Source of the DNA: Pecten maximus
Lineage: Eukaryota
Assembly (NCBI RefSeq): GCF_902652985.1
Contig: NC_047032.1
Coordinates: 3,844,001-3,908,000 of the forward strand
Length of the DNA: 64,000 nucleotides
Direction: 5' to 3'
The notes below the pieces were generated by a model. The model was given only the letters and a program-made list of their open reading frames with translations. It ran no database searches and had not been told where the DNA came from. The first letter of the stretch is position 1. Every line of letters starts with the position of its first letter. The position numbers were made by a program, and so were the translations under genes. Shown here piece by piece: positions 5,601-30,647 of this stretch.

Positions 5601-6223
5601 GGGGGTCATTTCTTGTATTCCGTGCCAAACCCGTGCTTTTGACCCGAGCCAAAAAAAATTCCTGCTTCAACGAATTATGGCTAACTCGAACCCTTTCCAA
5701 CAAACTCGTACCCAAAATTTGCGGAGTCGTACCTAAAAGTGTTGTACTCGTATCCTAAAGAAATTGGCGAACTCGTACTCAACTTACAAAATTAATTCAA
5801 ATGAAATAGACGTCCTTTTAATGAAAAAATATATATTTATATATCGGTGTACCTAATGAGTAACCAGAGAGTGTCGAGTGACTTTTGCACGCCCAGGAAT
5901 TCGTTAATTAATATATTTTGATTTTTTTTCTATAACATACAAATTGTACTTACATGAATTTCTAACATCGTGCAACATTTTATTGCAATCGGACGACTGT
6001 ATAGCGATGTGTTTTGATACTGAATCTAGCCTTCGGTAATCACTTCACTGTCATGGCCATTTTATTTCTAGGACTCACACAACTAAATAATTTACTATAT
6101 GTTATTACTAGTGACCAAATCCCTTTATTCGTTCGTTTGAAGTTCAAATGATGTGAAATTTATATCAAATTAAAGTTTGAAGATTTTTCTATCGGATAAA
6201 TGCCGTTATTGTATAGGTTTAAT

Positions 6224-6251
6224 CAGAGACATATCTGTATATATGTCTCTG
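6224..6251. mobile_element. P-element-like excision footprint / mini-element (28 bp)
   Basis: gtttaat|cagagacatat-ctgtatatatgtctctg|gtttaat: 7-bp TSD; halves match the TIRs of the element at 20151-21285. Confidence 0.8.
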
Positions 6252-7203
6252 GTTTAATGGCATATAAGAGCACACGGGTACTCGGAAGACAGTAACCCCG
6301 ACATTAACAGTACACTGGGGAACCCCTACCTGGGGAATTCCCGCCTTTTTACACCTCGAATCCTACGCCATTCTATTTTCAGTAGGAGTGTATATTTTTG
6401 ATTTTCCAAACCTCAAGACCCTATACTTTATTCTCGTATATAGAAAGTACCCATTTCATATATTAATTACTCAGGAAAACAGCTTCAAACCTAAGAAACA
6501 CATTCTCCTCAGGGACTTGGTTTACACTGATTGGCTGATTTAGTTGTGTGAGTCCTTCTACCATCCATGGGATATGTTAATGACATAATTTCAAATCTGA
6601 AACCTGAAACAAAAATACTTACAAAAACTTATTATTTCATCATGACCATGAATATATATACATACACTTTCGAAGTGAACCATAAATGCACTAATTTTGA
6701 ATATGTATATGTTTTGATATTTCCTTTTTAAGGAGACGAACTAATATAAGCTTTAGGCTTGTTTTCGAATCCTTACATTCATGTAATGTGTACAACTTTG
6801 TTGTTTACAAAATAAAATACTGTTTAAACCAATCATTGAGACAAGTGATCATCTGACATGACAGATGATCTATCCGTGACTCCGCCCACCTGCGGTGTTG
6901 TCTAATTGGATTGGTTAATTTAACTTTTGCACCTGTCTAGCTGTCAACTAACCCGCGTCTCCGCCTACTTGTGTTCAATGGAAGATGATGACAGGTGACG
7001 AAATCTATCAATAGGCGGAGACACGTAACTAACAAATTAGGTGTCGTACTGTTTGTCCGTTATCTCCCACCTTTCAGGTGATAGGCCGTCAATTTGTAAG
7101 GCAGTAGAAACGAAACGTATTTGGATGGATAATGGTAAGAGTACATTAAGTTTTAAAGAAAAAATATGATATTCTAAAAGATAGAAAACTTTGTGGAAAT
7201 ACG

Positions 7204-7947
7204 ATGTGTTATGTACAGGACATTTTAAAGAAACAGCTTCCAAATATAAAAGGTATGCAGGATACGGGTTACGCTCCAGTTTTGAAAAAAAGTAGGTGGG
7301 ATTCTGCTTTACGAATTAAACCAAATACAGCACCAGCAGTGCAGATTCATCATACAGGTGAGGACCATTGCGTAGTATCGGTACAGGAGGTAGATGATAA
7401 CGAGGTATTTATTCTTGATGGTTTAATAAGTTTAACTAAACAGAAAGATCATTTGTAAGCGTCGTTATATAGAAATGCAGGTAACTTCAACGTATGGGGA
7501 AAATAGGAAAATCTTGAAAACAATTTTACCGAACGTACAGCAGCAGAAAAATGAGATTGATTGCGGGTTTTTTTTTTTTTTTTTTTTTTTGCGATAGCTA
7601 ATTTAGTAGAGTTTTGTTTCAACTGTTTTAACGGGAGTGATCAATTATAATTTTACATTGATTGTATGAGACAGCATCTTGTTAATTGTATTTCGAATGG
7701 TAGATGTTCTAATTTTATAAGTAGGAAACCAAATAAAAATAGGAAAAAGAAAGTTTCACAGGCATTTAAGTATTATGTTTTTATCGATTGCGAGTCAGGC
7801 GGGTGTCACCTTTCTAAGGTTTACGATGATATGGTAACTTGTGATGCTGGTTGTAATAGGTGGTTTCACAATAGATGTGTAATTGATAAGTCAGATTTCA
7901 ATTTTTCAAGAGATACTTTCGTTTGGCATTGTAATAAGTGTTCGTAG
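7204..7947 (+). pseudogene. frameshifted Ulp1-like cysteine protease + C-terminal PHD finger, probably transposon-derived
   Basis: QIHHTGEDHCVV...FILDGL, then VQQQKNEIDCG, AIANLVEFC, MRQHLVNC and C..C...MVTCDAGCNRWFHNRCV...WHCNKC (PHD). Broken by a stop and an expanded poly-T. Confidence 0.65.
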
Positions 7948-8339
7948 ATCTTTATAATAGTGTTTAATAATCAACTGGTAAGTTCAACTACAGAAATATA
8001 GGCTGTTACGACATACAAAACTAATTATGATATTAAGCAATTAGGATTAAATGTAATTAATAGAATTAAATAGGTAGGTAGGTAGTTAACAGTAAATAAA
8101 TAGGAAACTAAATAAATAGATAGTTAACTGTAAATAAGTTGGAAATTAATTTGCGTATATAAATACTCAGATGGTAAACATGGTATAAAATGTAAATGTA
8201 TGTAATATTTAAATAACTAATAAATTATATGGACTCATTGTAGAACCACGTCCCCGTCGTTGAGTCTGAAAACATTTCATATAGCCAAGAGTTCTACATA
8301 ATATATGTACACAAATTAAAGCTCGGGCTCGGGTGAGTT

Positions 8340-10542
8340 GTCTGCCCTTAGCACGTGCTCGGTGTAAACATGGCGAGCCAGCTGGCTAGTCCGGTGATCT
8401 GAGGCTTGGTTACCAAAAAGTCCAAATTTCCAATGAAATAAACCGAGATTGATGTTGAAGTTGATATTTTTAAAACAAGTTATATATACTGGTTACATGC
8501 ATGTAAGAATATTAAAAAAAATAACGCATGTATTTCAAATAATTTGCAAACAAGAAATATCTTTAAAAAAGATAAACGGCATAGTTTTAATGCTGGTGGT
8601 TATAATGTAAAACTACTGGTGAAATAAATTAACGAACTACGATGTAATTAATAAATGCGCAGTTTCAGCACGGATAACAAAATTATATCAGTTTGAATCA
8701 TTTTTGGTGATAAAGGGACATCACGGTAAAAACGTTGCAATTTTCACTGAATGTACGCGTTTTGTTCCTTTCCAGTTATGTTTCTGTGCTGTTCCAATGT
8801 TCACAGTCAATCCCTATGTCCAGCTTGACCACTCGATTCAGTTGGGAACCCCCCTCTAAATTTAGCGCGGAAATTATTTTTAGATCATTACGTGACTGTT
8901 TTGAAATCGTGGCAACACAAACACACGATAGTTTGCAAGGCGATATCTATATTCCATCTGGGTTAGTTGGATAACGATATTATACACAGTGGTTTAAATG
9001 TTAAATAACACGTTCTGTAAATATTACGGCACACATATTTATGTGTAAATAAGTGTAAACACTGTTCATATAGTATAGTGACAGTAGCGATGTACTGGTA
9101 CAGACTGTATTTATGTAAATATTACCGAGATTATCATGACCTACTATCAAACAATCAAGCAGAATACGAGCGGCGTCCGTATTACTGCTGTTTTCATGTT
9201 TGAACTGTTACAATCTATTGTACTACTTCCCAAGTTTAATTCTAGGATTGTGTTTGATCCATTTTCCTATTATTCTCTTCATTGCGGAAGCTGTTATAGT
9301 TTTCAACCGCAGTCGATTCACATTGGAAGCCATTTTTGTTTCCGTATATGTCACAACATTTGCATATTCAGCATTTTGCATTGACCCCTACATTGACCAA
9401 TCACATACTTCATCTTCACCAGAACGCCACCTGTCGCGTCATATCCGGGGCCAAAACCAAATTAGACGGCTATGCCGAAAAACGTGAATAGTCACGCTTG
9501 ATTGCGGCAGAGACCTATATATACATTTGTAGGTCTCTGATTGCGGGATACAATGACCCACTGAAAAATGAAAATCGGCGATTTCAAGAGCAATATTTAT
9601 TTATATGAAATTTTGCTGGCACGGTTAAGTGACAAACATAAACACAAACAAATGTAGAGAAAAGGAGTTTAATCAGTCTATCCGTTAAGGAAAAATATCG
9701 AAAGCTCGGGCTCGGCTCGGGATATGAGAAATGACCTCCACCACGAACAAGGTAACACCGTATAACATGAAACGGTGTAGCGTGTACTATGCAAGTAGAA
9801 CGAATAAGCATACCTTGCTTTCACTCCGTTCCCGGCAGGGTATGAAGTCCCTCCCATTGCCGATAGTGTAGCACGGCCCGATGTGATATTTTTCAGATAA
9901 TATCCAACTGTAAATTATTGTTCTGGCAACTTTGACTAATATTCAATTCACAAACCTACCAATTATAATGTTTATATATAAGCGGTAAAAGTCGGAGCAA
10001 ACACAACGTACACATAAATCTGTTCAAATACGCCGCCATGTTTGATTTACATATTCCTTATAAGGAAACTGTAACGAAATGGACTGTCTGCGACAGGCTA
10101 CCAGTTGAAAACTTTTTGAAGTTTAAAAGTCGGAAAATTAAGAAAAGTTGTTCTGAAACTAGATTATTTAAAGTTTTATTTGTAATTTACATGAAAGAAG
10201 TTTTTGAAAATCGTGCTAAAAGTCTGTGTCATCATATTTACTATCGTAGTAAAATCTGTAGGTCATTCCATATAAGGTAAACTTACCATAATTGGAGCGC
10301 GAGACTTTCCAACGAGAAGTGTCATGGCGGCCAAACAAGCCATACTGAAGCTGTGACTTAGAGAAATGTGCGTAGTGACACGATATAAACATGATGGTAG
10401 GTAGGTTAATAAATTATCAGTTTATGCTAGAAATGTGTAATAATACTGAATTTAAATGCAAATTTACATGACACTCACTAGTTGTATCATTTTCACCGCT
10501 GGATGTTTTGCAACACTACGGTCAATGGGACGGAATCGTAGC
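8340..10542. repeat. copy 1 of a directly duplicated 2.2-kb block (copy 2 at 13877-16084)
   Basis: Near-identical sequence and ORF track at offset ~5540; identity continues into the adjacent MULE. Confidence 0.95.
9508..9539. mobile_element. P-element-like excision footprint (32 bp); duplicated at 15050-15081
   Basis: attgcgg|cagagacc...ggtctctg|attgcgg, 7-bp TSD. Confidence 0.8.
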
Positions 10543-13500
10543 GAATGCTAGTCGTTTCGGTAACAAGTCGTTTCGGGACTACCGAAACGACTCGAAGTCG
10601 TATCGAGTCGTTTCGGTACATTCTCAAGATATTTCGGGACATTGATAGGACGTTTCGGTAGACTTCTAAAATAATTTATATTCTATCAAAATTGTATTAA
10701 TTGCAGTTCTGTTGTTTGGTTCAACATCTGTATGTTTATTTACGATAGTTAGGGTTATGTCCCTTACTACGTTTTTTCTTCCGGGTTGTGATGAACTCTG
10801 CCACGTGCCACGGGTCAAAAGTCTGCGTAGTTAACATCCATTTGGTAATATATTCTTTTTTTTCTCTAGGAAATATTTCTGTAATGTTACGGAAAGACTT
10901 TTGACCCGAAGCTGCATAAAACTACATGAGAATATTATGGAAAATCAGCACAAAACCACAACGTACATGTAATATTTTTATTATCATTAATAACAAGCAA
11001 ATATAACAGTGTAAAAATATCAGTGTAACACACAATAATTTTAGTATAAGTTCAAAAAAAATAACAATGATGTAAAATGAAATTATATAATATAAATCAA
11101 TTAATAATAAAAACAAGTTACCACATAAATGCATATATTATATGACATGCTGTTGAAAAGCATTCGCTACACAATAAATTAATACAATATACATGTATAT
11201 CTGTGTACCCAGGACTCGGGACGTGGACCCTGCTTTTCTGAAGTCCCATATGTTTTTTTTTTTGCTTTTTTTTTTATTATTATTATATTTTTTTTTAATT
11301 CATGATATCTATCAACACTACAAACTATAAACATATCTATGGACAAAACTACGAGAGAACTACATAAGCGCTACAAAAATTAACATTGCATGATTGTACC
11401 ATCCTGGAAATAAACTAAAAAAATGTTCATTCAGCACTACAAACTATATACATATATATAAACAAAATGTTCTTCACTACTATAGCACTACATCAGCACA
11501 ACATAGCACTACACAACACTACACAACACAACACTACAGTTCATCTACATAAACACACTTTCAATGTAACAAACGTCCTATCCTCCGCATCAGCTGGGAG
11601 GTTGAAACCTCACCATCTGTATACTGTCCCCACAATCGAAACACTTCCCTCTGAATGTCCCGTGTTTTCTTCCGCTGGTATCTTGCGAGCTTGTTCTCGC
11701 AAACCATCTTTGATTGAAGGGGGATCGCGGTGGCTTCCCTGAAGAGCTCCTGCAACAACAGATAAAATGGAACGGGACCCCTGATGTTGACTCGGGAATT
11801 CAACCGGTTGTGCCACCCTTCTACGTCGTTGTTGGTTCTAATAGGCGACATGAAAATGGACGACGAGCTGACGGGGAAAGTTCTGTAGAGAAACAAAGAA
11901 TGACTTAGTAATGCGACTAACTAATAACATCGTTTTTAGGTTTTACTTTATAGTAAAACAATATCGGATTACACTGTATGCTATTTTCGAAAAAATATGA
12001 TTTCAAAACTTATATATATACATGTATGTTACATTATACAAATAGTTATTTCTTCCAACCCCTTATTTTAACGCACCTGCTTCGAATCCATGTTCTGTCG
12101 ATATAGTCCATCAGGGATGCTAATGCCGGTGATGTGACGCGGTCATCCAGCCTCATGAAAGTCTCCACAATCTGTTCTGATGGAAGGAACGGGAGACACA
12201 TCACTTGCCGAATGAAATCGTACACATCTCCTCTCTCGTTGTAGGCAGTCTGAAATAATAAGAAAAATGTAATGTTACTGTCACAATAACTTCAGTATTA
12301 TATGAGGTTTTTTTTGGCGAAGAAATTTACACGTTTTACTTCTTACTTCTCACTATTTGATAATACCATTATTACTATCATTGTCAAATGTTATCATATT
12401 GATTGCAAAGTTTAGTTTTGTCAAGTTGCATTAAATCCTTCGCCATGTTCCTGTATTCATTCCTCGTTACGCCTAAAATATAAACGCAATTCTATACCTA
12501 TAACCTTAACTATTTTGCCGTAAACTACATGTACATATTTTCTCTATCTTTCCCTAATTCTATACCTATAACCTTAACTATTTTGCCGTAAACTACATGT
12601 ATATATTTTCTCTATCTTTCCGTAATTCTTATATATGTAAAATATTTTCTATCTTATCGTAAACTACATGTACATATTTTCTCTATCTTTCCCTAATTCT
12701 ATACCTATAACCTTAACTATTTTGCCGTAAACTACATGTATATATTTTCTCTATCTTTCCGTAATTCTTATATATGTAAAATATTTTCTATCTTAGCGTA
12801 AACTACATGTATATATTTTCTCTATCTTTCCGCAATGAGAACAAATACTTTACATGGGCCCGGAGAATTTAAAAAAAAAATAATTTCGGCATTTACATAC
12901 TTTCTTGTTAACTTTCTTTCAATATAAGTATGTTGTCATAAAGCCTATGTTTAATGCTTTTTACATTATAAAAAAAACTGTTGCCGTACTTTCTTTCAAA
13001 ATAAGAAATGGTATCTAAGAAATAGCCATAAAACCTGTGTTATGATATTAAAATAATGTAATAAAATATGTCAATACAGACTATTAGAATATCAACAATT
13101 TGTCTTGTTTAATTTCCATAGGAAAGGCCCCTGTAATCGCATTTTAAATTCTAAACATGTAACAATTTTTTTCACAACACTCACCTGAATTGCACGTTCT
13201 ATGTTGCCATCTGGAGCACTTGTCACACTCAAGACCCTCCTGTCGAGGACGAACGGGTTTCGTACACGCGACACAAAGATCCGATGAAGACATGTTGAGA
13301 GATTCAATTGATAGGTGCCAATTGGTGACAGTATTTAATATACCCACTAGGTATAATTATGTTTTCTTACAAGAGTCGCCCCAATTAGTGTAATAATCAG
13401 CTGGTATGCGCCCGTAAGTAATTAATTAATTATGTTTTCTCACCAGGGTCGCGTCACTCCACCGTCGTACGTAAAGCACACATCAATCAGCGCCGACTAA

Positions 13501-13876
13501 GAAAACATAGTTTGTATTAATGATACAATTGTTTTCAAAATCAGCAGTAATCATTGATTAATAATGTATCAATTATCTACGGGTGCAGCTTCAATAATAA
13601 AATAATAAAAAGATAAATACACAATATCAAGGAATAAATACACAATATCAAGGAATTATACATATACATGTATATGATATCAAAGTAATGAAATCAACCT
13701 GTATAGACTTTATTTCTCGGGCATGGGTTGTTATAACAATTTTTGAAAATTATCTCCCGAAACGACCCGAACTTCTACCGAAACGACCCGAACTTCTACC
13801 GAAACGACTTCCGAATGTCCCGAAACGACTTCCGAAAAAGTCCCGAAACGACTTGTTACCGAAACGACCTGTTACC
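10543..13876 (-). mobile_element. Mutator/MULE DNA transposon copy 1 (both TIRs, internally deleted; keeps the 5' PHD exon and last two transposase exons)
   Basis: TIRs gtcgtttcggtaacaagtcgtttcgggact / agtcccgaaacgacttgttaccgaaacgac with subterminal cgaaacga repeats. LCVACTKPVRPRQEGLECDKCSRWQHRTC (PHD) at ~13185-13293; RTNNDVEGWHN at 11561-11882. Confidence 0.85.
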
Positions 13877-16084
13877 GTCTGCCCTTAGCACGTGCTCGGT
13901 GTAAACATGGCGAGCCAGCTGGCTAGTCCGGTGATCTGAGGCTTGGTTACCAAAAAGTCCAAATTTCCAATGAAATAAACCGAGATTGATGTTGAAGTTG
14001 ATATTTTTAAAACAAGTTATATATACTGGTTACATGCATGTAAGAATATTAAAAAAAATAACGCATGTATTTCAAATAATTTGCAAACAAGAAATATCTT
14101 TAAAAAAGATTAACGGCATAGTTTTAATGCTGGTGGTTATAATGTAAAACTACTGGTGAAATAAATTAACGAACTACGATGTAATTAATAAATGCCCAGT
14201 TTCAGCACGGATAACAAAATTATATCAGTTTGAATCATTTTTGGTGATAAATTAAGGGACATCACGGTAAAAACGTTGCAATTTTCACTGAATGTACGCG
14301 TTTTGTTCCTTTCCAGTTATGTTTCTGTGCTGTTCCAATGTTGACAGTCAATCCCCAATGTCCAGCTTGACCACTCGATTCAGTTGGGAATCCCCCTCTA
14401 AATTAAGCGCGGAAATTATTTTTAGATCATTACGTGACTGTTTTGAAATCGTGGCAACACAAACACACGATAGTTTGCAAGGCGATATCTGTATTCCATC
14501 TGGGTTAGTTGGATAACGATATTATACACAGTGGTTTAAATGTTAAATAACACGTTCTGTAAATATTACGGCACACATATTTATGTGTAAATAAGTGTAA
14601 ACACTGTTCATATAGTATAGTGACAGTAGCGATGTACTGGTACAGACTGTATTTATGTAAATATTACCGAGATTATCATGACCTACTATCAAACAATCAA
14701 GCAGAATACGAGCGGCGTCCGTATTACTGCTGTTTTCATGTTTGAACTGTTACAATCTATTGTACTACTTCCCAAGTTTAATTCTAGGATTGTGTTTGAT
14801 CCATTTTCCTATTATTCTCTTCATTGCGGAAGCTGTTATAGTTTTCAACCGCAGTCGATTCACATTGGAAGCCATTTTTGTTTCCGTATATGTCACAACA
14901 TTTGCATATTCAGCATTTTGCATTGACCGCTACATTGACCAATCACATACTTCATCTTCACCAGAACGCCACCTGTCGCGTCATATCCGGGGCCAAAACC
15001 AAATTAGACGGCTATGCCGAAAAACGTGAATAGTCACGCTTGATTGCGGCAGAGACCTATATATACATTTGTAGGTCTCTGATTGCGGGATACAATGACC
15101 CACTGAAAAATGAAAATCGGCGATTTCAAGAGCAATATTTATTTATATGAAATTTTGCTGGCACGGTTAAGTGACAAACATAAACACAAACAAATGTAGA
15201 GAAAAGGAGTTTAATCAGTCTATCCGTTAAGGAAAAATATCGAAAGCTCGGGCTCGGCTCGGGATATGAGAAATGACCTCCACCACGAACAAGGTAACAC
15301 CGTATAACATGAAACGGTGTAGCGTGTACTATGCAAGTAGAACGAATAAGCATACCTTGCTTTCACTCCGTTCCCGGCAGGGTATGAAGTCCCTCCCATT
15401 GCCGATAGTGTAGCACGGCCCGATGTGATATTTTTCAGATAACATCCAACTGTAAATTATTGTTCTGGCAACTTTGACTAATATTCAATTCACAAACCTA
15501 CCAATTATAATGTTTATATATAAGCGGTAAAAGTCGGAGCAAACACAACGTACACATAAATCTGTTCAAATACGCCGCCATGTTTGATTTACATATTCCT
15601 TATAAGGAAACTGTAACGAAATGGACTGTCTGCGACAGGCTACCAGTTGAAAACTTTTTGAAGTTTAAAAGTCGGAAAATTAAGAAAAGTTGTTCTGAAA
15701 CTAGATTATTTAAAGTTTTATTTGTAATTTACATGAAAGAAGTTTTTGAAAATCGTGCTAAAAGTCTGTGTCATCATATTTACTATCGTAGTAAAATCTG
15801 TAGGTCATTCCATATAAGGTAAACTTACCATAATTGGAGCGCGAGACTTTCCAACGAGAAGTGTCATGGCGGCCAAACAAGCCATACTGAAGCTGTGACT
15901 TAGAGAAATGTGCGTAGTGACACGATATAAACATGATGGTAGGTAGGTTAATAAATTATCAGTTTATGCTAGAAATGTGTAATAATACTGAATTTAAATG
16001 CAAATTTACATGACACTCACTAGTTGTATCATTTTCACCGCTGGATGTTTTGCAACACTACGGTCAATGGGACGGAATCGTAGC
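13877..16084. repeat. copy 2 of the duplicated 2.2-kb block, starting exactly at the MULE terminus
   Basis: ...gaaacgacctgttacc|gtctgcccttagcacg matches 8340 onward. Confidence 0.95.
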
Positions 16085-19000
16085 GAATGCTAGTCGTTTC
16101 GGTAACAAGTCGTTTCGGGACTACCGAAACGACTCGAAGTCGTATCGAGTCGTTTCGGTACATTCTCAAGATATTTCGGGACATTGATAGGACGTTTCGG
16201 TAGACTTCTAAAATAATTTATATTCTATCAAAATTGTATTAATTGCAGTTCTGTTGTTTGGTTCAACATCTGTATGTTTATTTACGATAGTTAGGGTTAT
16301 GTCCCTTACTACGTTTTTTCTTCCGGGTTGTGATGAACTCTGCCACGTGCCACGGGTCAAAAGTCTGCGTAGTTAACATCCATTTGGTAATATATTCTTT
16401 TTTTTCTCTAGGAAATATTTCTGTAATGTTACGGAAAGACTTTTGACCCGAAGCTGCATAAAACTACATGAGAATATTATGGAAAATCAGCACAAAACCA
16501 CAACGTACATGTAATGTTTTTATTATCATTAATAACAAGCAAATATAACAGTGTAAAAATATCAGTGTAACACACAATAATTTTAGTATAAGTTCAAAAA
16601 AAATAACAATGATGTAAAATGAAATTATATAATATAAATCAATTAATAATAAAAACAAGTTACCACATAAATGCATATATTATATGACATGCTGTTGAAA
16701 AGCATTCGCTACACAATAAATTAATACAATATACATGTATATCTGTGTACCCAGGACTCGGGACGTGGACCCTGCTTTTCTGAAGTCCGATATGTTTTTT
16801 TTTTGCTTTTTTTTTTAATTATTATTATATTTTTTAAAATTCATGATATCTATCAACACTACAAACTATAAACATATCTATGGACAAAACTACGAGAGAA
16901 CTACATAAGTGCTACAAAAATTAACATTGCATGATTGTACCATCCTGGAAATAAACTTAAAAAATGTTCATTCAGCACTATAAACTATATACATATCTAT
17001 AAACAAAATGTTCTTCACTACTATAGCACTACATCAGCACAACATAGCACTACACAACACTACACAACACAACACTACAGTTCATCTACATAAACACACT
17101 TTCAATGTAACAAACGTCCTATCCTCCGCATCAGCTGGGAGGTTGAAACCTCACCATCTGTATACTGTCCCCACAATCGAAACACTTCCCTCTGAATGTC
17201 CCGTGTTTTCTTCCGCTGGTATCTTGCGAGCTTGTTCTCGCAAACCATCTTTGATTGAAGGGGGATCGCGGTGGCTTCCCTGAAGAGCTCCTGCAACAAC
17301 AGATAAAATGGAACGGGACCCCTGATGTTGACTCGGGAATTCAACCGGTTGTGCCACCCTTCTACGTCGTTGTTGGTTCTAATAGGCGACATGAAAATGG
17401 ACGACGAGCTGACGGGGAAAGTTCTGTAGAGAAACAAAGAATGCCTTAGTAATGCGACTAACTAATAACATCGTTTTTAGGTTTTACTTTATAGTAAAAC
17501 AATATCGGATTACACTGTATGCTATTTTCGAAAAAATATGATTTCAAAACTAATATATATACATGTATGTTACATTATACAAATAGTTATTTCTTCCAAC
17601 CCCTTATTTTAACGCACCTGCTTCGAATCCATGTTCTGTCGATATAGTCCATCAGGGATGCTAATGCCGGTGATGTGACGCGGTCATCCAGCCTCATGAC
17701 AGTCTCCACAATCTGTTCTGATGGAAGGAACGGGAGACACATCACTTGCCGAATGAAATCGTACACATCTCCTCTCTCGTTGTAGGCAGTCTGAAATAAT
17801 AAGAAAAATGTAATGTTACTGTCACAATAGCTTCAGTATCATATGATTTAAAACTACATACAAAATTTTCTGTTTTTTTCTTTTATATTCAGATATAGGT
17901 ATATACTTTTTACGAGAAATTCAAATATTCTATTTAACTATTTATTTCAATAACTAATTTCTTAACCTATACACTTTACAATACCTGTAATCCGAGCTCC
18001 TGAACTTTCCGGAACACAGCTTGTGACCAGTGGAATGCACAACCCTGTATCCGACAGTCCGGATATCTCTGGCGGATAGTCTGCCACACGGCTGCCTCGA
18101 AGTCCACAACGCACAGTTCCAGACGGATGTCATCAGGCAGTTGGCGGTCGATGGATCGCGGAGTACCTACAAAAAATACAGAATTATGATTTGGAAAATG
18201 ATAATAAAAAAGAGGTATTATTTGTTATCCATAATTTATTTTATTATTTATATATTAGTGTATCATAAATGAATTAAATTGTTTATTGATAAATTAGTTA
18301 TCTTAAATATTGCAACATTTGATATGTATATGAAGACCTTTGCTGTAATTACCTCATAATAATCCTCTGTTCGCTTTCCAGACATAAAACAGAATGCCAG
18401 AGGTATCTGTTTCATGCTGGAACCAGACCTAATGAACCCATGGATACTAAACAGCTGTGTGGAGGGAGGCTTGACCACGTGGAACGTTGCATCCATGTAC
18501 CAGGTCTTGGTCTTCGCAAGGAGGCTGAGTTGATGGTCTGTTGCAAGAATAAGATGGCGGCGTTCATTCACATTCAGGTCCCTCAACATAAAACCAGGAG
18601 CTGTCGATTCAACGAAATCTCTATCCAGCTAGAAGCAGAAAGCAACAAAATGAAAAACAGGCCTTACTTCTTACTATTTGATAATACCATTATTACTATC
18701 ATTGTCAAATGTTATCATATTGATTGCAAAGTTTACTTGTAAAGCTATGAAATTTATACATTTCGTTTGTTCGAAGAAGTTAATAGCTGTTCCCTAATTT
18801 CAACATACCTGGAAATCCATATGGCCTGGATCCTTTGGTCGCATGGACTGACGCATTCTGTTGATGGACCTTACTATGTTGGCAACTTTCGGTCGACTGT
18901 GTTCCGGCTGAGCTGTGTCGGCAAGGTCCTGGACGATGTCGGAAGCAATCCTGGGCGCGGATACAGTGAACACGTTCTCCTTGGCCTGGGAAAGCGCCTG

Positions 19001-19304
19001 GAATTAATGAAATAATTATATCAAAATAGGTCTATTAACAATAATCTCATTTCGTTACAATTTGAAAATGGGTTTTCCCAAATGGATGAAATAGTATCTG
19101 TTAGATTTTGATGATATTTGTAAAACATGTATTATCAGATAATACCGTCATCAGAATATATATACAAAATGGTTTATATAAGGTATTTATATCATCATTA
19201 TGATAGACTTACCTCTGCACGGATTTTGACCGTAGTCAATATACCCGGTTGTCCAGGATGAAGATGCTGTTTCTTCCCCTCAGTGTTCCCTGTCTGTATA
19301 ATGG

Positions 19305-19783
19305 CATCTTCGCTAGCCAAGGCTTCTGATTACGTTACACTCCACGAACCCTTGGCAGATATAGGCGTCAGTTCTGGCCCTCTAGCGGTGATTCGAAATT
19401 ACCACCCTTCACGCATGAAATTTTCGACCAATCAAAACAAGCGTTACCGATTTACTTCATCGGTGATGTTTACAAACACACATCGAGGTTTGGTGTCATT
19501 TCGTTGAGATATGTGATCAATGACTTATATGAATTGATCAAACACTGCGAATGTTCCCCCAAAGATTGTGATTTTTGTATTTAGGTAAAATGCCATGACA
19601 TAGTCGGCAATGTAGCTCTGTACTGGGTGCCGCATTTTTTGTTTACTGCGAAACCAAGCCAGAATGTAAAACGCGATTTGATTGGGTGCCCTGGGATTCC
19701 AGGGCGCGACGGTTTGAACACGACTATATCCGCCAAGGGTTCGTGGAGTGTAACGTAATCAGAAGCCTTGGCTAGCGAAGATG
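19305..19783. mobile_element. 479-bp MITE with ~65-bp TIRs and 9-bp TSD, inserted in the MULE FLYWCH exon
   Basis: gtataatgg|catcttcgctagccaaggcttctgattacg...cgtaatcagaagccttggctagcgaagatg|gtataatgg. Confidence 0.92.
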
Positions 19784-20150
19784 GTATAATGGTAGCAGGA
19801 CAATTCAGCGCCTTGCCTCTCTTAATGCATCTCTAAAACACCCAAGTGTCGGTACACCTTGACTTCTAAAATGGAAATATAATGCTTACTATATGAACTA
19901 TAGTTATTTTAGAGTATTTCTTTCTTATGATTCTTTCTTTTTTAATGCTAACGCTAGTAGTAGTAAAGCAGTAGCAATAACATGGAGTATATATGTATTG
20001 TTAAGGGTATATTCCTGTAGTAATTTTCTTTCTTTCTTTTTTATTTGAAGTAATGACTTGTCTGATTCTCCTTATTTTGCGCAGTATTTTTATAGCGATA
20101 TTTAGAGGTATTGCTTACCAAGACAGTGTAGCTATAGCCATTGCTATCAA

Positions 20151-21285
20151 CAGAGACATATATACAGAGAGATTGGCAGCTCTCTATTTGCCCTTGTGTT
20201 TACATAGTGGCCCCTGACCTTCCCACAATCCTTTGCGGTCGCTCGGTTCAGTCTTCACTAGACGCCATATTGGAGAAAACTTGAAAACCAGACACATAAT
20301 TATCGATAATTTCTATTTGAAATCATCACCAAGATCCAATTATGTGCTTTAATTTTATTAATATCAAAGTGCAGAAGTGTCATCAATATGAAATATATCA
20401 CAATTTGCTGTCGAAGTGTTTGTATTTTGAGTATGAAAGTCAAGCACAACGCAGGAAAGATCGGCGGGAATCTCCAATTTTCGAAAAGTCCCTATGGGGT
20501 TTTCGAGAATACGGATAAATGACAACAATGTGCATGATAATCAAGACCACATTCCATAAGTATGATAGTTTTTGGTTAATGTGGTAACTTTTGTAGTGGC
20601 CAAAATAAAACGATGTGCTTTTTGTGTGCGTTTAAAATTGACGATGTTTTGGTCTGACGTAATGGCGGCTATTTACAAACTTGGACATGTCGAATAGGAC
20701 CCAATGGATTTTAGAAAATACGGATAAATGGCAACAATGTGCATGATCAATAAGACTATATCACATAAGTATGATAGTTTTTGGTTAATGTGGTAACTTT
20801 TGTAGTGGCCTAAGTAAAACGATGTGCTTTTTGTGTGCGTTTAAAATTGACGATGTTTTGGTCTGACGTAATGGCGGCTTAATTACAAACTTGGACATGT
20901 CGAATAGGACCCAATGGATTTTCGAAAATACGGATAAATGACAGCAATATGCATGATCAGTAAGACTATATCCCATAAGTTTGATAGTTTTTGGTTAATG
21001 TGGTAACTTTTGTAGTGGCCAAAATAAAACGATGTGCTTTCTGTGTGTATTTAAAATGACGATGTTTTGGTCTGACGTAATGGCGGATTAACCAGAACAT
21101 GTCGAATAAGTTCCAACACTACGATACACACATGCGCATAGCCCGATTTACCTGCGCTCGTGTGTGTTTGATAGGAGACAGGATGCTCTCGATAAGGGAT
21201 ATGCTTGAGTGGTCACGAATAAAGGGAGCCACTATGTGTACGAGGAAATAGCGATGTTACTAATCTCTCTGTATATATGTCTCTG
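20151..21285. mobile_element. 1135-bp non-autonomous P-element-like transposon (7-bp TSD) with an internal ~210-bp triplication
   Basis: ctatcaa|cagagacatatatacagagagatt...aatctctctgtatatatgtctctg|ctatcaa; CA...TG termini. Confidence 0.85.
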
Positions 21286-22652
21286 CTATCAACTAGCTTT
21301 CGGTTTCCACGCTTGGAACCTTGGCTGACCTCCTGGTAAGATGTTGGCAGATCTTCCGGTTCCACATCATCAAGAGTTGAAGTCTCAAGTGGCAAGGATT
21401 CCTCATGTGTCGCTTCGGTTACCTGGAATGCCGTTGAGATGTTAAAGGAATCATCTGCTGGCTCCTCTGGATCTGGACGATTGCAGAGTGCACACGACCA
21501 GTCAAGTTGCATTAAATCCTTCGCCATGTTCCTGTATTCATTCCTCGTTACGCCTAAAATATAAACGCAATTATATACCAAAAACCTTAACTATTTTGCC
21601 GTAAACTACATGTAAAATATTTTCTATCTTAGCGTAAACTACATGTATATATTTTCTCTATCTTTCCGTAATTCTTATATATGTAAAATATTTTCTATCT
21701 TACCGTAAACTACATGTATATATTTTCTCTATCTTTTCGTAATTCTTATATATGTAAAATATTTTCTATCTTAGCGTAAACTACATGTAAAATATTTTCT
21801 ATCTTACCGTAAACTACATGTATATATTTTCTCTATCTTCTCGTAATTCTTATATATGTAAAATATTTTCTATCTTACCGTAAACTACATGTATATATTT
21901 TCTCTATCTTCTCGTAATTCTATACCAATAACCTTAACTATTTTGCCGTAAACTACATGTATATATTTTCTCTATCTTTCCGTAATTCTTATATATGTAA
22001 AATATTTTCTATCTTACCGTCAGCTCTGACGACGACCATCTGTCAGAAATCTTCCGCGAAATTAATGGTTATTGTGATAGAAACGAAAGCGGAAGTAATA
22101 AAAAGTGGAAATCCCGATGATCTAGTCGAAGGCGGTGACGGCGCAATGAAACCAGTCTTTGCCTGAGAATTGCAAAAGTTTGAGAAGGATCAAGTCAAAG
22201 GTCAAGTTAATATAACACCAGATCATTATTTTATGTCGTACGCTTTGTTGTAATGATGTTATAAAAGTACACGGCTAGTTTATACTGTCTGTCCATGATA
22301 TATTCTGAAGCCAGTGAGGGGGTGGTATATGATTACATCGTTTTAAGTGTTTGTTTTACATTTATTTGTATTTGGTCCTGGTTAATAGAATATTGTCTGC
22401 TCAAACAGTTTTTGTCATGCAACCTGGCAATGGTGGCCAAGACAATGGTGTGATTAAAAAGAAGTATTGGGAAATTAATCGTAATTGTACCAAAAACGAA
22501 AGAGGAAGTAAAAAGATGGAAATTCCGATGACGTAATGGGTAAATTTTATCAAACAGAGAAAACAGCCGAGGTGGCACGGACGCAGTGAATCTTTCCCAA
22601 GAATGTCGTAACATTTAGAAGCGTCAAGTCAACGACCAAGTGTTAATTTAAC

Positions 22653-22685
22653 CAGAGACCTATATACTATATATATAGGTCTCTG
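22653..22685. mobile_element. P-element-like excision footprint (33 bp); duplicated at 26696-26728
   Basis: atttaac|cagagacctatatactatatatataggtctctg|atttaac. Confidence 0.8.
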
Positions 22686-25076
22686 ATTTAACGTAAGGTA
22701 ATTATCTGATATGGTGTTAGCCTCATTGTAACAATGTATTGTACTTTACCGCCTTGTCAGGCTTGTGAACCTAATGTGTATTAATATCACTCCAAATAAA
22801 GTGACTAATTTCGTTTTATAAAATAATAACATACAGTCTATGGACAAAAGTAGTGGAACGATAATCGTTCCACGATGACGGTTTTCGCGTTGTCAAAGTC
22901 GGAACTATAAATGCGGTATATAAAGCACATCGACACCGCTTACATCATCGGAAAGGTCATGGTCTCGTGCTTTGATTGGCGTTCTATTTTTGTCGTCTGC
23001 TAGCATGGTTTTTGTTTACAAATAGAAGAAGCGAGATGGAGCCAAATTTGAGGTACGCGAGTGAAGGCCAGAAACAAACTGTGGTAGCTATGGTTCAGAA
23101 AGGCGTATCTTTCCAAAAAGTTGGTGAGCTACTGAATATGCCTAAAACTATGGCAAGCCGTTTTAATATTTAATACCTAATGTAGCTTAAGTCAAATAGT
23201 TTTTCGACTTAAGTTAAAAAGATTTCAGCTTAAGCTGAAAATCTTTTCAGCTTAAGTTGAAATCTTTTCAGCTTAAGTTGAAATCTTTTCAGCTTAAGTT
23301 GAATAAAGACATAATGCAAAAAAAGTTTTTTTTAGCTTAAGTTAAAAAGATTTCAACCGAAAAGAAAAAACAGACATCATAATGTTAAAAGAATTCAACT
23401 TAAGCTAAAAAGATGTTGTTTTGATTAAATGAATAACTGTCTACGCCTTATGACATGGAATCGCCCATTTTGACCTTGAAAAGTCAATCAGCTTTGTATT
23501 GTAACGTTATGCTTCAGTGATTCAGATACAATAGTACCTGTGTAGGCTGGCCAGAACCATTTGAATCAATGGTTATACCCCAACATATCCTCTGCTGACA
23601 CAGGGTACAGGTAATGTTCATGGTGTTGTTAGAGGGGGAGAACAATGGGGACTAATTGCAGGAAGATGGGGTGGGGGATGGACTCATCACAGATAAGGCA
23701 TCATCTGTTTAGGGAAAGGGGATGATATCTCACATATACTGTAAACGATTTACATTTACATATCACAGTGAAAATGATGTTACTTTAAATCAATTAAAAT
23801 CAAAACATTAATCAAATATATGACACAATAAATTGTATGTTTGAATGAAAGATATTCAAACATACATACTTGTTAGCAACACGGACCTGTATATCAGATA
23901 ACATATATCCATGTTAGTAAGATCAGTTTTTTTTTCCAGCTTCTTTATAGTTAAACAATTCCCTTAAATGATTTATGAAGTAGATTTCAATTTCAGACAT
24001 CAAATTCTCTACGTTTGCTCGTGGCAAAAATCTGTTACTTATTTCTACTCAGTATTCTCGTTAACTTAAAAAAATGAACTGTTGCGATAGAATTGCTTGA
24101 TATATACTGTTGTACATGTATTTACGGATCAGGTCCTGATGTGATGGACATTTTAGGATCAAAGAGAAATTCATCATCAATATATCACCAGACGTAAAAT
24201 TAAAAGTAAAAGTTAATCTCAATAAAACCAAAGTCATATTTGATAAAAGAAAAAGTTATGCACAAAATAGATCTATTTGTTTTTCTCTTTTTCATGAAGA
24301 GCTGGATACACGGATAGTTACTCTTTTCTATATCTATCAGTATAATGGCAGCTTTTGTAAAGCAAGAAAAAAATTGTTGAACATGCAGGGTTAATAAACA
24401 ATGAATTGAGGAATTACTGAATGAAATTAATGTGCTGAAGATCCACATTTAAGGAACTGCATTTATACCTGGTTTGAATGTTATTGATTATTTGCTTATG
24501 CCTTTTACTTTATTTCAAATTGTGATTTTTTTTTTACCAAAAATGTGAGAATGGTAAATAATGAAATGCAGACAATCAAGGTGATAACAGAAATGTCAGG
24601 GGCCGGTTGTTTGAACGTTCATTAAATTAAACCATCATTAAAGTATCATTAAGCCTTAATGATTCATTAAATATCAAATGATTGATTAGTTAATGAATCA
24701 TTAAAAATGTGTTGTTGGAAAGTTCATTTAAGGGATCATTAACAAATTAAGGTTTAATGAAGACTTAATGACGGATCCACAATTAAACCATCATTAACTG
24801 TGGGGATTCCCTCTTCCCATAATGGGGCATTTATTGGTGGGAGATCAGAAAGATGAAACAATTCTTTGGTGAAATGTAGGAGGATTATACGAGTGATGGA
24901 GTAATGATATTAGCGTCCAAATGAATAAATGTCTGTTATTTTGGTCCTTAGTGATACTCCAGGGTGACTGAAGATGTTTATGACTTGATATTAGAGGAAT
25001 TTTGGTGAGTGAAGCTGTCGTATTATTAAAGTAAAGACACTATGTTATACTTCTGTGATGCACTCACTATTAAAGA

Positions 25077-25631
25077 TAACAATGTTCCCAATGGGCCTGT
25101 ATCACTCACCTGGCTCTACAGCAGCTTTAAAGTTGATCTAGGTCATTTCTGCAGAAACTATGCTGATTACCACTTTAATCATATATCAGAGTAGGCTTGG
25201 CTAATTCATGTGAATACATTTTCTACAAGTCCTTCATCCCAGCATTGTTTTGGCGTAATATCAGATCTCAAAGTCTCTTGGCTATCAACAAATACATTGT
25301 TTCATGACCTGTGACCTTTAATATAGTTCAAGGTCTTTTATTTGAACAAATTTGGTAGCCCTTCACCCCAGCATGCTACATGACCAATATCAAGTCCCTG
25401 CATGGGCCTCTTGGTTATTTAGAAGTAGTTGTTAAAAGAGTTTAGCCTATTTGACCCCTGTGACCTTGAATGAAACTTGGTAGCCCTTCATCCCAGCATG
25501 CTACAGGCCCAGTATTTGGTCTCTGGACCTCTTGGTTATTGAGAAGAAGTTGTTAAAATGGAAATGTTGACGCCGGACGGACGAACGGACAGTATAATAA
25601 GCTCACTTGTCCTTCGTACAGGTGAGCTAAT
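25077..25631 (+). mobile_element. Helentron-associated non-autonomous element (HINE/pearl-like); duplicated at 29077-29629
   Basis: 5' aacaa...gggcctgtatcactcacctg, internal gacctt/cccagcatg repeats, (ggac)n microsatellite, 3' hairpin agctcacttgtccttcgtacaggtgagct. Confidence 0.7.
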
Positions 25632-28600
25632 AAATACCACTACTTATCTTATCAAAATATAGATGGTCATTCTCACAACAATACATGAACACCCAACAAC
25701 ATCGCATAAGGGGTCATGTGTGACCTGTGTTACCTCAATATTTCACTTTAAGGTCAAACTGACAATTTTTCGATGTCATCGATGTCATCCATTCGTGACA
25801 TCATGCATCTGAAGCTAACCATTTTGGTACAGCATGAGTATTGTTATGCTTTCTAGGATGAAATGACTTAAAACAGATTGAGAAATCATGCAAGCCATGC
25901 CCTCCTTTTTTATATACGGTACATGTAGGTAGCACACCACAGTAAGACAGCCTGGCCATGGGCAATTTTTTTGTTAAGCAAATAACTCCTGTATTATGAT
26001 ATGTATAAAAAATGAAAAAATAAATGTACACTATAATTGGTATATCCAGTATGAAGTAGTACATACAGGCTTCACATTTATTAAAACAAAAATCAATAAA
26101 TTGGTTCCGGATTTTAAATATCCGGATTTTCCGAACGTGTGTTTACACAGGAAATTTAGTTTCGCCTACAGCGCAAAATGGAAGCCCACAGAAAAGGTAA
26201 GATAGCGGAAAAACTTAATTTACAACATATGTCCAAACAAGATTAATTCTGTCTTTGGGATAGAGATATTTAATTTTAAATAGGTTTCAGAAAAAAAATT
26301 GTGTAGAGAATTGTGCCATTTTGGGTCAAATATCATAATATTTTGCAATTTTTGAGAATTTTTTAAGCTGTTACCATGGTATTCACAGCTCTAAAAATCA
26401 CAGAAAATATCAGTTTACTTATCCTTCAGAGCTCTATTAAAATTGCAAATGTTGTACAGATTTCAAATATATATACTTTATTAGAGGTTATATGTAAGGT
26501 TAACTGGCAATGTTTACATATCTAAAGCATGTGCCATATTTTTCAGAATTTGGCATTTTTACTGTACACTGCTACCTTATAAGGGCTGAAAAATGTTATT
26601 TTTTGGAAATTGTGCTTAATTATGCTTGATTAAGCTTCATTTTATATGTCGTAACATTTAGAAGCGTCAAGTCAACGACCAAGTGTTAATTTAACCAGAG
26701 ACCTATATACTATATATATAGGTCTCTGATTTAACGTAAGGTAATTATCTGATATGGTGTTAGCCTCATTGTAACAATGTATTGTACTTTACCGCCTTGT
26801 CAGGCTTGTGAACCTAATGTGTATTAATATCACTCCAAATAAAGTGACTAATTTCGTTTTATAAAATAATAACATACAGTCTATGGACAAAAGTAGTGGA
26901 ACGATAATCGTTCCACGATGACGGCACATCGGTTTTCGCGTTGTCAAAGTCGGAACTATAAATGCGGTATATAAAGCACATCGACACCGCTTACATCATC
27001 GGAAAGGTCATGGTCTCGTGCTTTGATTGGCGTTCTATTTTTGTCGTCTGCTAGCATGGTTTTTGTTTACAAATAGAAGAAGCGAGATGGAGCCAAATTT
27101 GAGGTACGCGAGTGAAGGCCAGAAACAAAGTGTGGTAGCTATGGTTCAGAAAGGCGTATCTTTCCAAAAAGTTGGTGAGCTACTGAATATGCCTAAAACT
27201 ATGGCAAGCCGTTTTAATATTTAATACCTAATGTAGCTTAAGTCAAATAGTTTTTCGACTTAAGTTAAAAAGATTTCAGCTTAAGTTGAAATCTTTTCAG
27301 CTTAAGCTGAATAAAGACATAATGCAAAAAAAGTTTTTTTAGCTTAAGTTAAAAAGATTTCAACCGAAAAGAAAAAACAGACATCATAATGTTAAAAGAA
27401 TTCAACTTAAGCTAAAAAGATGTTGTTTTGATTAAATGAATAACTGTCTACGCCTTATGACATGGAATCGCCCATTTTGACCTTGAAAAGTCAATCAGCT
27501 TTGTATTGTAACGTTATGCTTCAGTGATTCAGATACAATAGTACCTGTGTAGGCTGGCCAGAACCATTTGAATCAATGGTTATACCCCATCATATCCTCT
27601 GCTGACACAGGGTACAGGTAACGTTCATGGTGTTGTTAGAGGGGGAGAACAATGGGGACTAATTGCAGGAAGATGGGGTGGGGGATGGACTCATCACAGA
27701 TCAGGCATCATCTGTTTAGGGAAAGGGGATGATATCTCACATATACTGTAAACGATTTACATTTACATATCACAGTGAAAATGATGTTACTTTAAATCAA
27801 TTAAAATCAAAACATTAATCAAATATATGACACAATAAATTGTATGTTTGAATGAAAGATATTCAAACATACATACTTGTTAGCAACACGGACCTGTATA
27901 TCAGATAACATATATCCATGTTAGTAAGATCAGTTTTTCCAGCTTCTTTATAGTTAAACAATTCCCTTAAATGATATATGAAGTAGTTTTCAATTTCAGA
28001 CATCAAATTCTCTACGTTTGCTCGTGGCAAAAATCTGTTACTTATTTATACTCAGTATTCTCGTTAACTTAAAAAAATGAACTGTTGTGATAGAATTGCT
28101 TGATATATACTGTTGTACATGTATTTACGGATCAGGTCCTGATGTGATGGACATTTTAGGATCAAAGAGAAATTCATCATCAATATATCACCAGATGTAA
28201 AATTAAAAGTAAAGTTAATCTCAATAAAACCAAAGTCATATTTGATAAAAGAAAAAGTTATGCACAAAATAGATCTATTTGTTTTTCTCTTTTTCATGAA
28301 GAGCTGGATACACGGATAGTTACTCTTTTCTATATCAGTATAATGGCAGCTTTTGTAAAGCAAGAAAAAAATTGTTGAACATGCAGGGTTAATAAACAAT
28401 GAATTGAGAAATTACTGAATGAAACTAATGTGCTGAAGATCCACATTTAAGGAACTGCATTTATACCTGGTTTGAATGTTATTGATTATTTGCTTATGCC
28501 GTTTACTTTATTTTAAATTGTGATTTTTTTTTTACCAAAAATGTGAGCATGGTAAATAATGAAATGCAGACAATCAAGGTGATAACAGAAATGTCAGGGG

Positions 28601-30167
28601 CCGGTTGTTTGAACGTTCATTAAATTAAACCATCATTAAAGTATCATTAAGCCTTAATGATTCATTAAATATCAAATGATTGATTAGTTAATGAATCATT
28701 AAAAATGTGTTGTTGGAAAGTTCATTTAAGGGATCATTAACAAATTAAGGTTAAATGAAGACTTAATGACGGATCCACAATTAAACCATCATTAACTGTG
28801 GGGATTCCCTCTTCCCATAATGGGGCATTTATTGGTGGGAGATCAGAAAGATGAAACAATTCCTTTGGTGAAATGAAGGAGGATTATACGAGTGATGGAG
28901 TAATGATATTAGCGTCCAAATGAATAAATGTCTGTTATTTTGGTCCTTAGTGATACTCCAGGGTGACTGAAGATGTTTATGACTTGATATTAGAGGAATT
29001 TTGGTGAGTGAAGCTGTCGTATTATTAAAGTAAAGACACTATGTTATACTTCTGTGATGCACTCACTATTAAAGATAACAATGTGCCCAATGGGCCTGTA
29101 TCACTCACCTGGCTCTACAGCAGCTTTAAAGTTGATCTAGGTCATTTCTGCAGAAACTATGCTGATTACCACTTTAATCATATATCAGAGTAGGCTTGGC
29201 TAATTCATGTGAATACATTTTCTACAAGTCCTTCATCCCAGCATTGTTTTGGCCTAATATCAGATCTCAAAGTCTCTTGGCTATCAACAAATACATTGTT
29301 TCATGACCTGTGACCTTTAATATAGTTCAAGGTCTTTTATTTGAACAAACTTGGTAGCCCTTCACCCCAGCATGCTACATGACCAATATCAAGTCCCTGC
29401 ATGGGCCTCTTGGTTATTTAGAAGTAGTTGTTAAAAGCGTTTAGCCTATTTGACCCCTGTGACCTTGAATGAAACTTGGTAGCCCTTCATCCCAGCATGC
29501 TACAGGCCCAGTATTTGGTCTCTGGACCTCTTGGTTATTGAGAAGAAGTTGTTAAAATGAAAATGTTGACGCCGGACGGACGAACGGACAGTATAATAAG
29601 CTCACTTGTCCTTCGTGCAGGTGAGCTAATAAATACCACTACTTATCTTATCAAAATATAGATGGTCATTCTCACAACAATACATGAACACCCAACAACA
29701 TCGCATAAGGGGTCATGGTGACCTGTGTTACCTCAATATTTCACTTTAAGGTCAAACTGACAATTTTTCGATGTCATCGATGTCATCCATTCGTGACATG
29801 CATCTGAAGCTAACCATTTTGGTACAGCATGAGTATTGTTATGCTTTCTAGGATGAAATGACTTAAAACAGATTGAGAAATCATGCAAGCCATGCCCTCC
29901 TTTTTTATATACGGTACATGTAATATATAAATACTGTAAATGTTGTGAGCTTTGTTTGCTTTACATACAGATGACAATGACACAGAATCATGGCAAAATA
30001 TTTTGGCTCACCCCTGTGAGTGGCCTTCCATATTATTTTATTAAAATTAACATAAAAACACAGAAATATACATATAATTTTTTTTAAAAAGCAAAGGTGA
30101 GCGGCAAAATTATGCCAAAATGAGCAGTATGTTTGCATAATGATCATCCGCCACCCGCTGAAAAAGT

Positions 30168-30600
30168 TTATTTCAACTTAAGTAAAAAAGATTTCAACTT
30201 AAGCTAAAAAAAAGGTTTATTTCAACTTAAGTCGAAAAGATTTCAACTTAAGCTAAAAAAAGGTTTTATTTCAGCTTAAGTAAAAAAGATTTCAACTTAA
30301 GCTTAAAAAAGGTTTATTTCAACTTAAGTCAAAAAGATTTCAACTTAAGCTAAAAAAAGGTTTTATTTCAACTTAAGTCAAAAAGATTTCAGCTTAAGCT
30401 AAAAAAAAGTTTATTTCAACTTAAGTCGAAAAGATTTCAGCTTAAGCTAAAAAAAGTTTGTTTCAACTTAAGTCAAAAAGATTTCAACTTAAGCTAAAAA
30501 AAAAAGGTTTATTTCAACTTAAGTCGAAAAGATTTCAGCTTAAGCTAAAAAAAGGTTTATTTCAACTTAAGTCAAAAAGATTTCATCTTAAGCTGAAAAA
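30168..30600. repeat. ~48-bp cttaag-containing tandem array inside the IS3EU-like element
   Basis: tttatttcaacttaagtcaaaaagatttcaacttaagctaaaaaa repeated ~9 times; related motifs near both TIRs. Confidence 0.85.
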
Positions 30601-30629
30601 AGAGTTTTATTGTTATATGGATGTATAAT

Positions 30630-30647
30630 CAGAGACATATGTCTCTG
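30630..30647. mobile_element. P-element-like excision footprint (18 bp, microhomology-collapsed)
   Basis: gtataat|cagagacatatgtctctg|gtataat. Confidence 0.78.

Follow-up and report, generated by a model that had tools for sequence, protein, structure and literature searches.

The P transposase of Drosophila melanogaster leaves 17-nt 3′ tails (PMC7776569), and in the structure of the fly enzyme the C-terminal domain holds a looped-out single strand (PMC7776569, section 6). The 66 fly junctions in Table 1 of PMC2895639 have mostly intact target site duplications (TSDs), keep at most 17 nt per arm and include microhomologies; fillers of up to 15 nt push some of them past 34 nt. Galileo and 1360/Hoppel, which belong to the P superfamily, have the 7-bp TSD and P-type transposase also found in the elements described here (PMC3698922). 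Zebrafish THAP9/Pdre2 is a P-type transposase from outside the flies that excises, with larger flanking deletions after excision, an 8-bp TSD and a THAP domain; the portion of PMC10983969 cited here gives no mapped cut depth for it. In the portions of the literature cited, only the fly enzyme is credited with a long staggered cut. Our literature search, which did not extend to Repbase, Dfam and most subscription journals, returned no titles that deal with genome-wide collections of natural P scars or with P elements made of two genes.

The window, the 64,000-nt stretch of Pecten maximus DNA analysed here (G000:C18:3844001-3908000), includes six palindromes of 18 to 33 bp, each with a perfect 7-bp TSD, and a full 1,135-bp element with the same termini and its own perfect 7-bp TSD (Table 1), all at the coordinates and lengths reported in the initial annotation. 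The termini define two families, named A (cagagaca) and C (cagagacc). Four of the six palindromes are independent, because the scars at 15050 and 26696 sit in tandem duplications (8340-12305/13877-17846, 99.2%, and 22603-25927/26646-29922, 97.3%). The palindrome at 6224 had been described as 11 nt of one arm plus exactly 17 nt of the other; this partition fits, and 11+18 with one common base fits equally well. The 1,135-bp element has three internal repeats of ~210 bp. Tandem units of ~97 bp are found at 30161-30611, beside the 30630 scar.

Table 1. Scars, transposable elements and predicted protein domains in the window. Positions are those of the window; TIR, terminal inverted repeat.
Feature	Position	Strand	Details
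Family A scar	6217..6258 with TSD (scar 6224-6251)	.	28 nt; TSD gtttaat; arms 11 and 17/18 nt; host is a high-copy repeat
Family C scar	9501..9546 with TSD (scar 9508-9539)	.	32 nt; TSD attgcgg; arms 14 and 10 nt, 8 nt unassigned
Copy of the 9508 scar	15043..15088 (scar at 15050)	.	via 3,972-bp tandem duplication
Non-autonomous family A element	20144..21292 with TSD (element 20151-21285)	+	1,135 bp; TSD ctatcaa; 24-bp TIR
Family C scar	22646..22692 with TSD (scar 22653-22685)	.	33 nt; TSD atttaac; arms 17 and 14 nt, filler 2 nt
Copy of the 22653 scar	26689..26735 (scar at 26696)	.	via 3,334-bp tandem duplication
Family A scar	30623..30654 with TSD (scar 30630-30647)	.	18 nt; TSD gtataat; two arms, 4-nt overlap
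Tc1/mariner-type transposase, two frames	32162-33140		PF01498, PF13358
Ig domain	37945-38325		
DZIP3-like HEPN	41085-41765		
nSTAND3 NTPase and ankyrin repeats	50872-53343		

The palindromes are probably donor-site scars of P-type DNA transposons, generated by a long staggered cut followed by end joining. According to this explanation, cleavage by the transposase would fall at the element tip on one strand and 17-18 nt further in on the other. The chromosome would keep a single-stranded tail of each inverted repeat, and the two tails would then be fused by end joining, flanked on either side by a copy of the duplicated 7-bp target. Repair would proceed by trimming, microhomology of 1-6 nt and addition of AT-rich filler, similar to alternative end joining in the fly, and the excisions presumably took place in the germline. 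The scars share with fly P donor sites the limited TIR remnants between intact TSDs and the microhomology, blunt and filler junctions (PMC2895639). They differ in that the TSD is 7 bp and not 8 bp, in the 18-nt limit of one of the families, and in that there are thousands of natural scars here as compared to laboratory products. The kind of product is known from flies, while the natural scale and the lineage are different. The earlier proposal that the chemistry is the same as that of fly P is probably right in kind, with its numbers corrected below and the cut itself inferred from the scars.

The TSD was scored in 88 distinct scars, leaving aside loci that had been selected by length or by a 19-nt arm and those picked as special cases: 66 have a perfect 7-bp TSD and 11 a 7-bp TSD with one mismatch, two have an 8-bp TSD and nine have none. 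Of 22 full-length elements, 21 are flanked by a perfect 7-bp TSD. Target sites show a weak palindrome; in strand-symmetrised counts, T at position 2 and A at position 6 account for 103 of 158. An empty form was recovered for one of the four independent window scars, the one at 6224. Of the 40 paralogous repeat loci scored for this site 30 were examined, one of which is the window itself, and all 29 others have a single copy of the 7-mer and no insert; therefore, the 7-mer was duplicated by insertion at the 6224 copy. A 35-base skip matching the 6224 scar plus its TSD was also found in contigs of runs X1, X2 and X15, which possibly represent paralogues and not alleles. No empty form of the 9508, 22653, 30630 or 20151 sites was found within the 1.1 Mb examined. 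A search for full, empty and footprint alleles had been suggested; the empty 6224 site was found in the paralogues, and none of the sites turned up in both a full and a scarred form.

The 918-Mb genome was searched with the pattern CAGAGACMT-N(0-30)-AKGTCTCTG, which gave 2,080 matches as compared to 2 for the reversed pattern used as control. In the window, chance accounts for 2 matches per 100 second-order Markov simulations, run without the TSD condition, versus the 6 observed. Lengths are distributed as 1,556 matches of 18-34 nt and 524 (25% of the 2,080) of 35-48 nt, with another 77 loci of 49-78 nt, and the loci per length class go from 92 (18-34 nt) to 37 (35-48 nt) and 2.6 (49-78 nt); these counts take in tandem duplicates, possible haplotigs and further subfamilies. 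A ceiling of 34 nt on total length, which holds inside the window as had been noted, is thus absent genome-wide, the scars being lengthened by filler. The longer forms listed consist mostly of short arms plus AT-rich filler, or of nested scars, and among the first 50 loci in the 49-78 nt range, 4 kept longer parent sequence as judged by eye. Scars outnumber the surviving elements (family C has 220 intact ends) and so represent a record of past activity, one that is likely missed by repeat annotation.

Several variant forms accompany the two families. Further subfamilies have ends that are 2 nt shorter or that differ past base 14. Nested scars are found inside older scars or element ends, including family A in family C (e.g., G000:C3:50935023-50935090 and C10:13226332-13226410), which suggests repeated insertion into scars. 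The scar G000:C1:19886623-19886653 is a hybrid with one family C end, one family A end and a perfect 7-bp TSD, and could be the product of cross-family pairing or of a point change. A scar-derived minisatellite, G000:C1:11141027-11142070, comprises 60 units in 1,044 bp, 34 of them the exact terminal 17-mer, and retains the flanking 7-bp TSD. We asked whether this array of 17-nt units proves a 17-nt tail independently, and rejected the argument: the first four bases of the TSD are those of the unit, so that the period of the array is set by slippage.

The genome includes 44 matches to PF21787. The family A autonomous element, G000:C5:3888865-3902535, is 13,671 bp long and has a perfect 28-bp TIR, the TSD ATTCACT and a P-type transposase; the 1,135-bp element of the window is 85-89% identical to both of its ends. 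Further copies are present on C13 (99.9% identical) and C17 (99% identical, frameshifted). The near-identical copies with an open frame have 99.9% amino-acid identity and constitute a young system for asking what sets the depth of the cut. Non-autonomous elements of 0.85-9 kb exist. The 220 intact family C ends belong mostly to non-coding elements of ~4-5 kb, and no P transposase was found in the 15 family C stretches examined, which are non-autonomous and some of which have LINE or other insertions. A family C relative with a transposase, G000:C18:1-16864, has the right end in common with the family (80-82% over 500 bp), as well as internal sequence; its left end is truncated by the contig start, and its transposase is 58% identical to that of family A. 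The link of family C to this putative parent is weaker than that of family A to its own. The division into two subfamilies proposed at the outset is supported, with a transposase-bearing relative for each. When 20 regions of ten kb around P transposase matches were scanned with a generic TIR and TSD search, no CAGAGAC-ended element was found, because the elements exceed 10 kb.

The 949-amino acid family A transposase matches PF21787, PF21788 and PF21789, all over the cut-off, and its sole PDB match is 6P5A, the fly P transposase (E 1e-13). In the alignment with the fly enzyme D634 corresponds to D303 and E885 to E531, and D530 was assigned by motif only. In the GTP-binding insertion domain 7 of the 8 residues listed in section 6 of PMC7776569 match, the exception being an E at the K385 position, where the family C transposase has K together with the same GTP-site motifs. 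The RNase H core with a GTP-binding insertion, with aligned catalytic and GTP-site residues, is common to the fly enzyme (PMC7776569). No THAP domain (PF05485) was detected by Pfam in the 949-amino acid protein, its first 473 amino acids or the family C protein, with a small separate exon a possibility; THAP is carried by 3 of the 120 homologues listed. The family A transposase stops 65 residues past the catalytic Glu, as do 112 of those 120 homologues at 43-98 amino acids, the motif being missing in the other 8. The canonical fly P/THAP9 architecture, an N-terminal THAP with a fused C-terminal domain, is therefore not the one found, and the differences from fly P extend to the absence of a detected THAP and the location of the putative C-terminal domain on a second gene. 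Since the elements combine a DDE/RNase H core, a GTP-binding insertion, and TIRs with a 7-8-bp TSD, we file the parents as members of the P superfamily by transposase core and not by canonical architecture. The initial annotation had predicted a THAP/P transposase with the same TIRs, P-type rather than hAT; the P-type assignment stood, with the TNP-like domains and the 6P5A match behind it, and the THAP did not. An origin from hAT was rejected, as Pfam scans of the parent ORFs found no hAT family and an 8-bp TSD occurs in only 2 of the 88 scars. Compared to Galileo and 1360/Hoppel, the elements have short TIRs of 24-30 bp, a 13.7-kb autonomous form and two convergent genes (PMC3698922). In relation to zebrafish THAP9/Pdre2 the likeness is that of a P-type transposase from outside the flies, with excision here deduced from scars (PMC10983969).

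Retention can be measured in both families because the TIRs run beyond 17 nt, those of family A to 24-28 bp. Genome-wide, 489 arms of closed family A scars match 16 nt, 284 match 17, 220 match 18 and 17 match 19, 5 of the last only through a duplicated terminus. The loss of arms is 23% from base 17 to base 18 and 92% from 18 to 19. Sorting by eye the 33 entries with 19-nt arms gave 12 of family A, 8 of family C (all those reaching 19 nt genome-wide), 7 duplicated termini and 6 non-parent sequences, so that 20 retain 19-23 nt of a parent. In arm samples, mostly picked for one long arm and hence enriched for long arms, 38 family A scars have 24 arms that reach base 18 and none that reaches 19, and in 21 family C scars (42 arms) 25 arms reach base 17, of which 13 stop there, and none reaches 19. 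All 12 family C arms reading base 18 sit in a self-complementary centre, such as annealing of two 17-nt tails would form. The limit of retention is 18 nt in family A and 17 nt in family C. A sharp limit had been predicted and was found, while the figure of exactly 17 nt does not suit the cagagaca family, for which 18 fits better.

A variant that concerns only the depth of the cut, possible but in our opinion rather doubtful, is that both families are cut at 17 nt and that the A found as base 18 in family A was added during repair or without a template. Base 18 is indeed an A in family A, and an A joined to a 17-nt tail without a template could look the same; retention ends at 17 in family C, as it does in 64 family A arms, and 4 of the 66 listed fly junctions have an A directly past the full 17-nt tail (PMC2895639, Table 1). 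On the other hand, A is read in 220 of 284 family A arms (77%) versus 2 of 13 non-G family C arms, and a flush 17+17 join is found at one locus genome-wide, as compared to 3 loci with a flush 18+18 join among the first 100 of the 220 entries. Both depths are compatible with the staggered cut, and the same arms bear on an improbable alternative, in which the scars are extreme internal deletions produced by a flush cut, short copying from the sister chromatid and aborted gap repair. Products of internal deletion are real and include the 0.85-9-kb non-autonomous elements, the 20 entries with 19-23 nt and the 4 of 50 long loci; the last two groups show that some repair synthesis or cut heterogeneity occurs. 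Aborted synthesis, however, predicts a gradual decay, and family A drops at 18 to 19 although its TIR goes on; since this step is sharp, a fixed cut fits rather than aborted copying. That the scars are an ultra-short MITE family transposing as 18-48-bp units is very improbable: identical 30-, 31- and 32-mers are indeed present at many sites that are unrelated and have separate TSDs, but arms and filler differ widely among sites, the recurrent forms are those repeatedly expected from microhomology joining of two fixed tails, A/C hybrids exist, and the scars are without subterminal sequence.

Both parents include a second, convergent gene, whose products are 34% identical between families A and C. 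A probable C2H2 exon of this gene lies near the right end, and its Mytilus homologues carry a C2H2 exon. One Mytilus homologue (36% identical) was modelled (mean pLDDT 62, 7 sequences), and the model was aligned to 6P5A chain B, the fly C-terminal domain, with Z 10.4 (a value that helical folds can attain by chance), rmsd 2.9, 116 of 118 residues and 22% identity, the next match having Z 6.5. Foldseek placed 6P5A chain B at E 1.3 and rank 36, though with the highest probability among the matches listed, and PF12596 fell below cut-off (E 0.05-0.1). Searches with the second ORF found no PDB match by sequence and no usable match in the Atlas, and no longer proteins with its domain were found, which is weak evidence; the family has 1,464 representatives, the best 150 of which are all 97-480 amino acids long. 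The modelled domain is likely, not certainly, homologous to the fly P C-terminal domain, and the joint presence of both genes in the elements suggests that this protein works with the catalytic one.

The step in scar retention suggests a long staggered cut at 17-18 nt by a P-type enzyme encoded as two facing genes. The ~2,000 natural scars tied to parents suggest that the cut is kept in a distant P lineage without THAP and with a separate C-terminal domain. We tentatively propose, as a reading that could well prove wrong, that marine invertebrates widely harbour a P lineage without THAP that transposes with a two-subunit enzyme. The C-terminal domain would be supplied in trans from a facing zinc-finger gene, the long staggered cut would be kept, sister families would differ in the depth of the cut (18 versus 17 nt), and the cut register could be read directly from the scars. 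In the more distant P clades of the genome (24-27% identical) the protein likewise stops a short way past the catalytic Glu, and some have long inverted repeats; the second-gene profile detected no second gene near them within the stretches examined, where a diverged partner is possible.

Outside the scars, the window includes exons of one or more probable host genes between 37945 and 53343. Fragments at 7150-7458, 11561-11920, 17102-17461 and 18263-18628, which gave no match in a Pfam scan, resemble pieces of a Mutator-type transposase and of a Ulp1-type protease. Tandem arrays are located at 1-2350 (38-bp units) and at 38400-39300 and 58700-60700 (~155-bp units, in opposite orientations).
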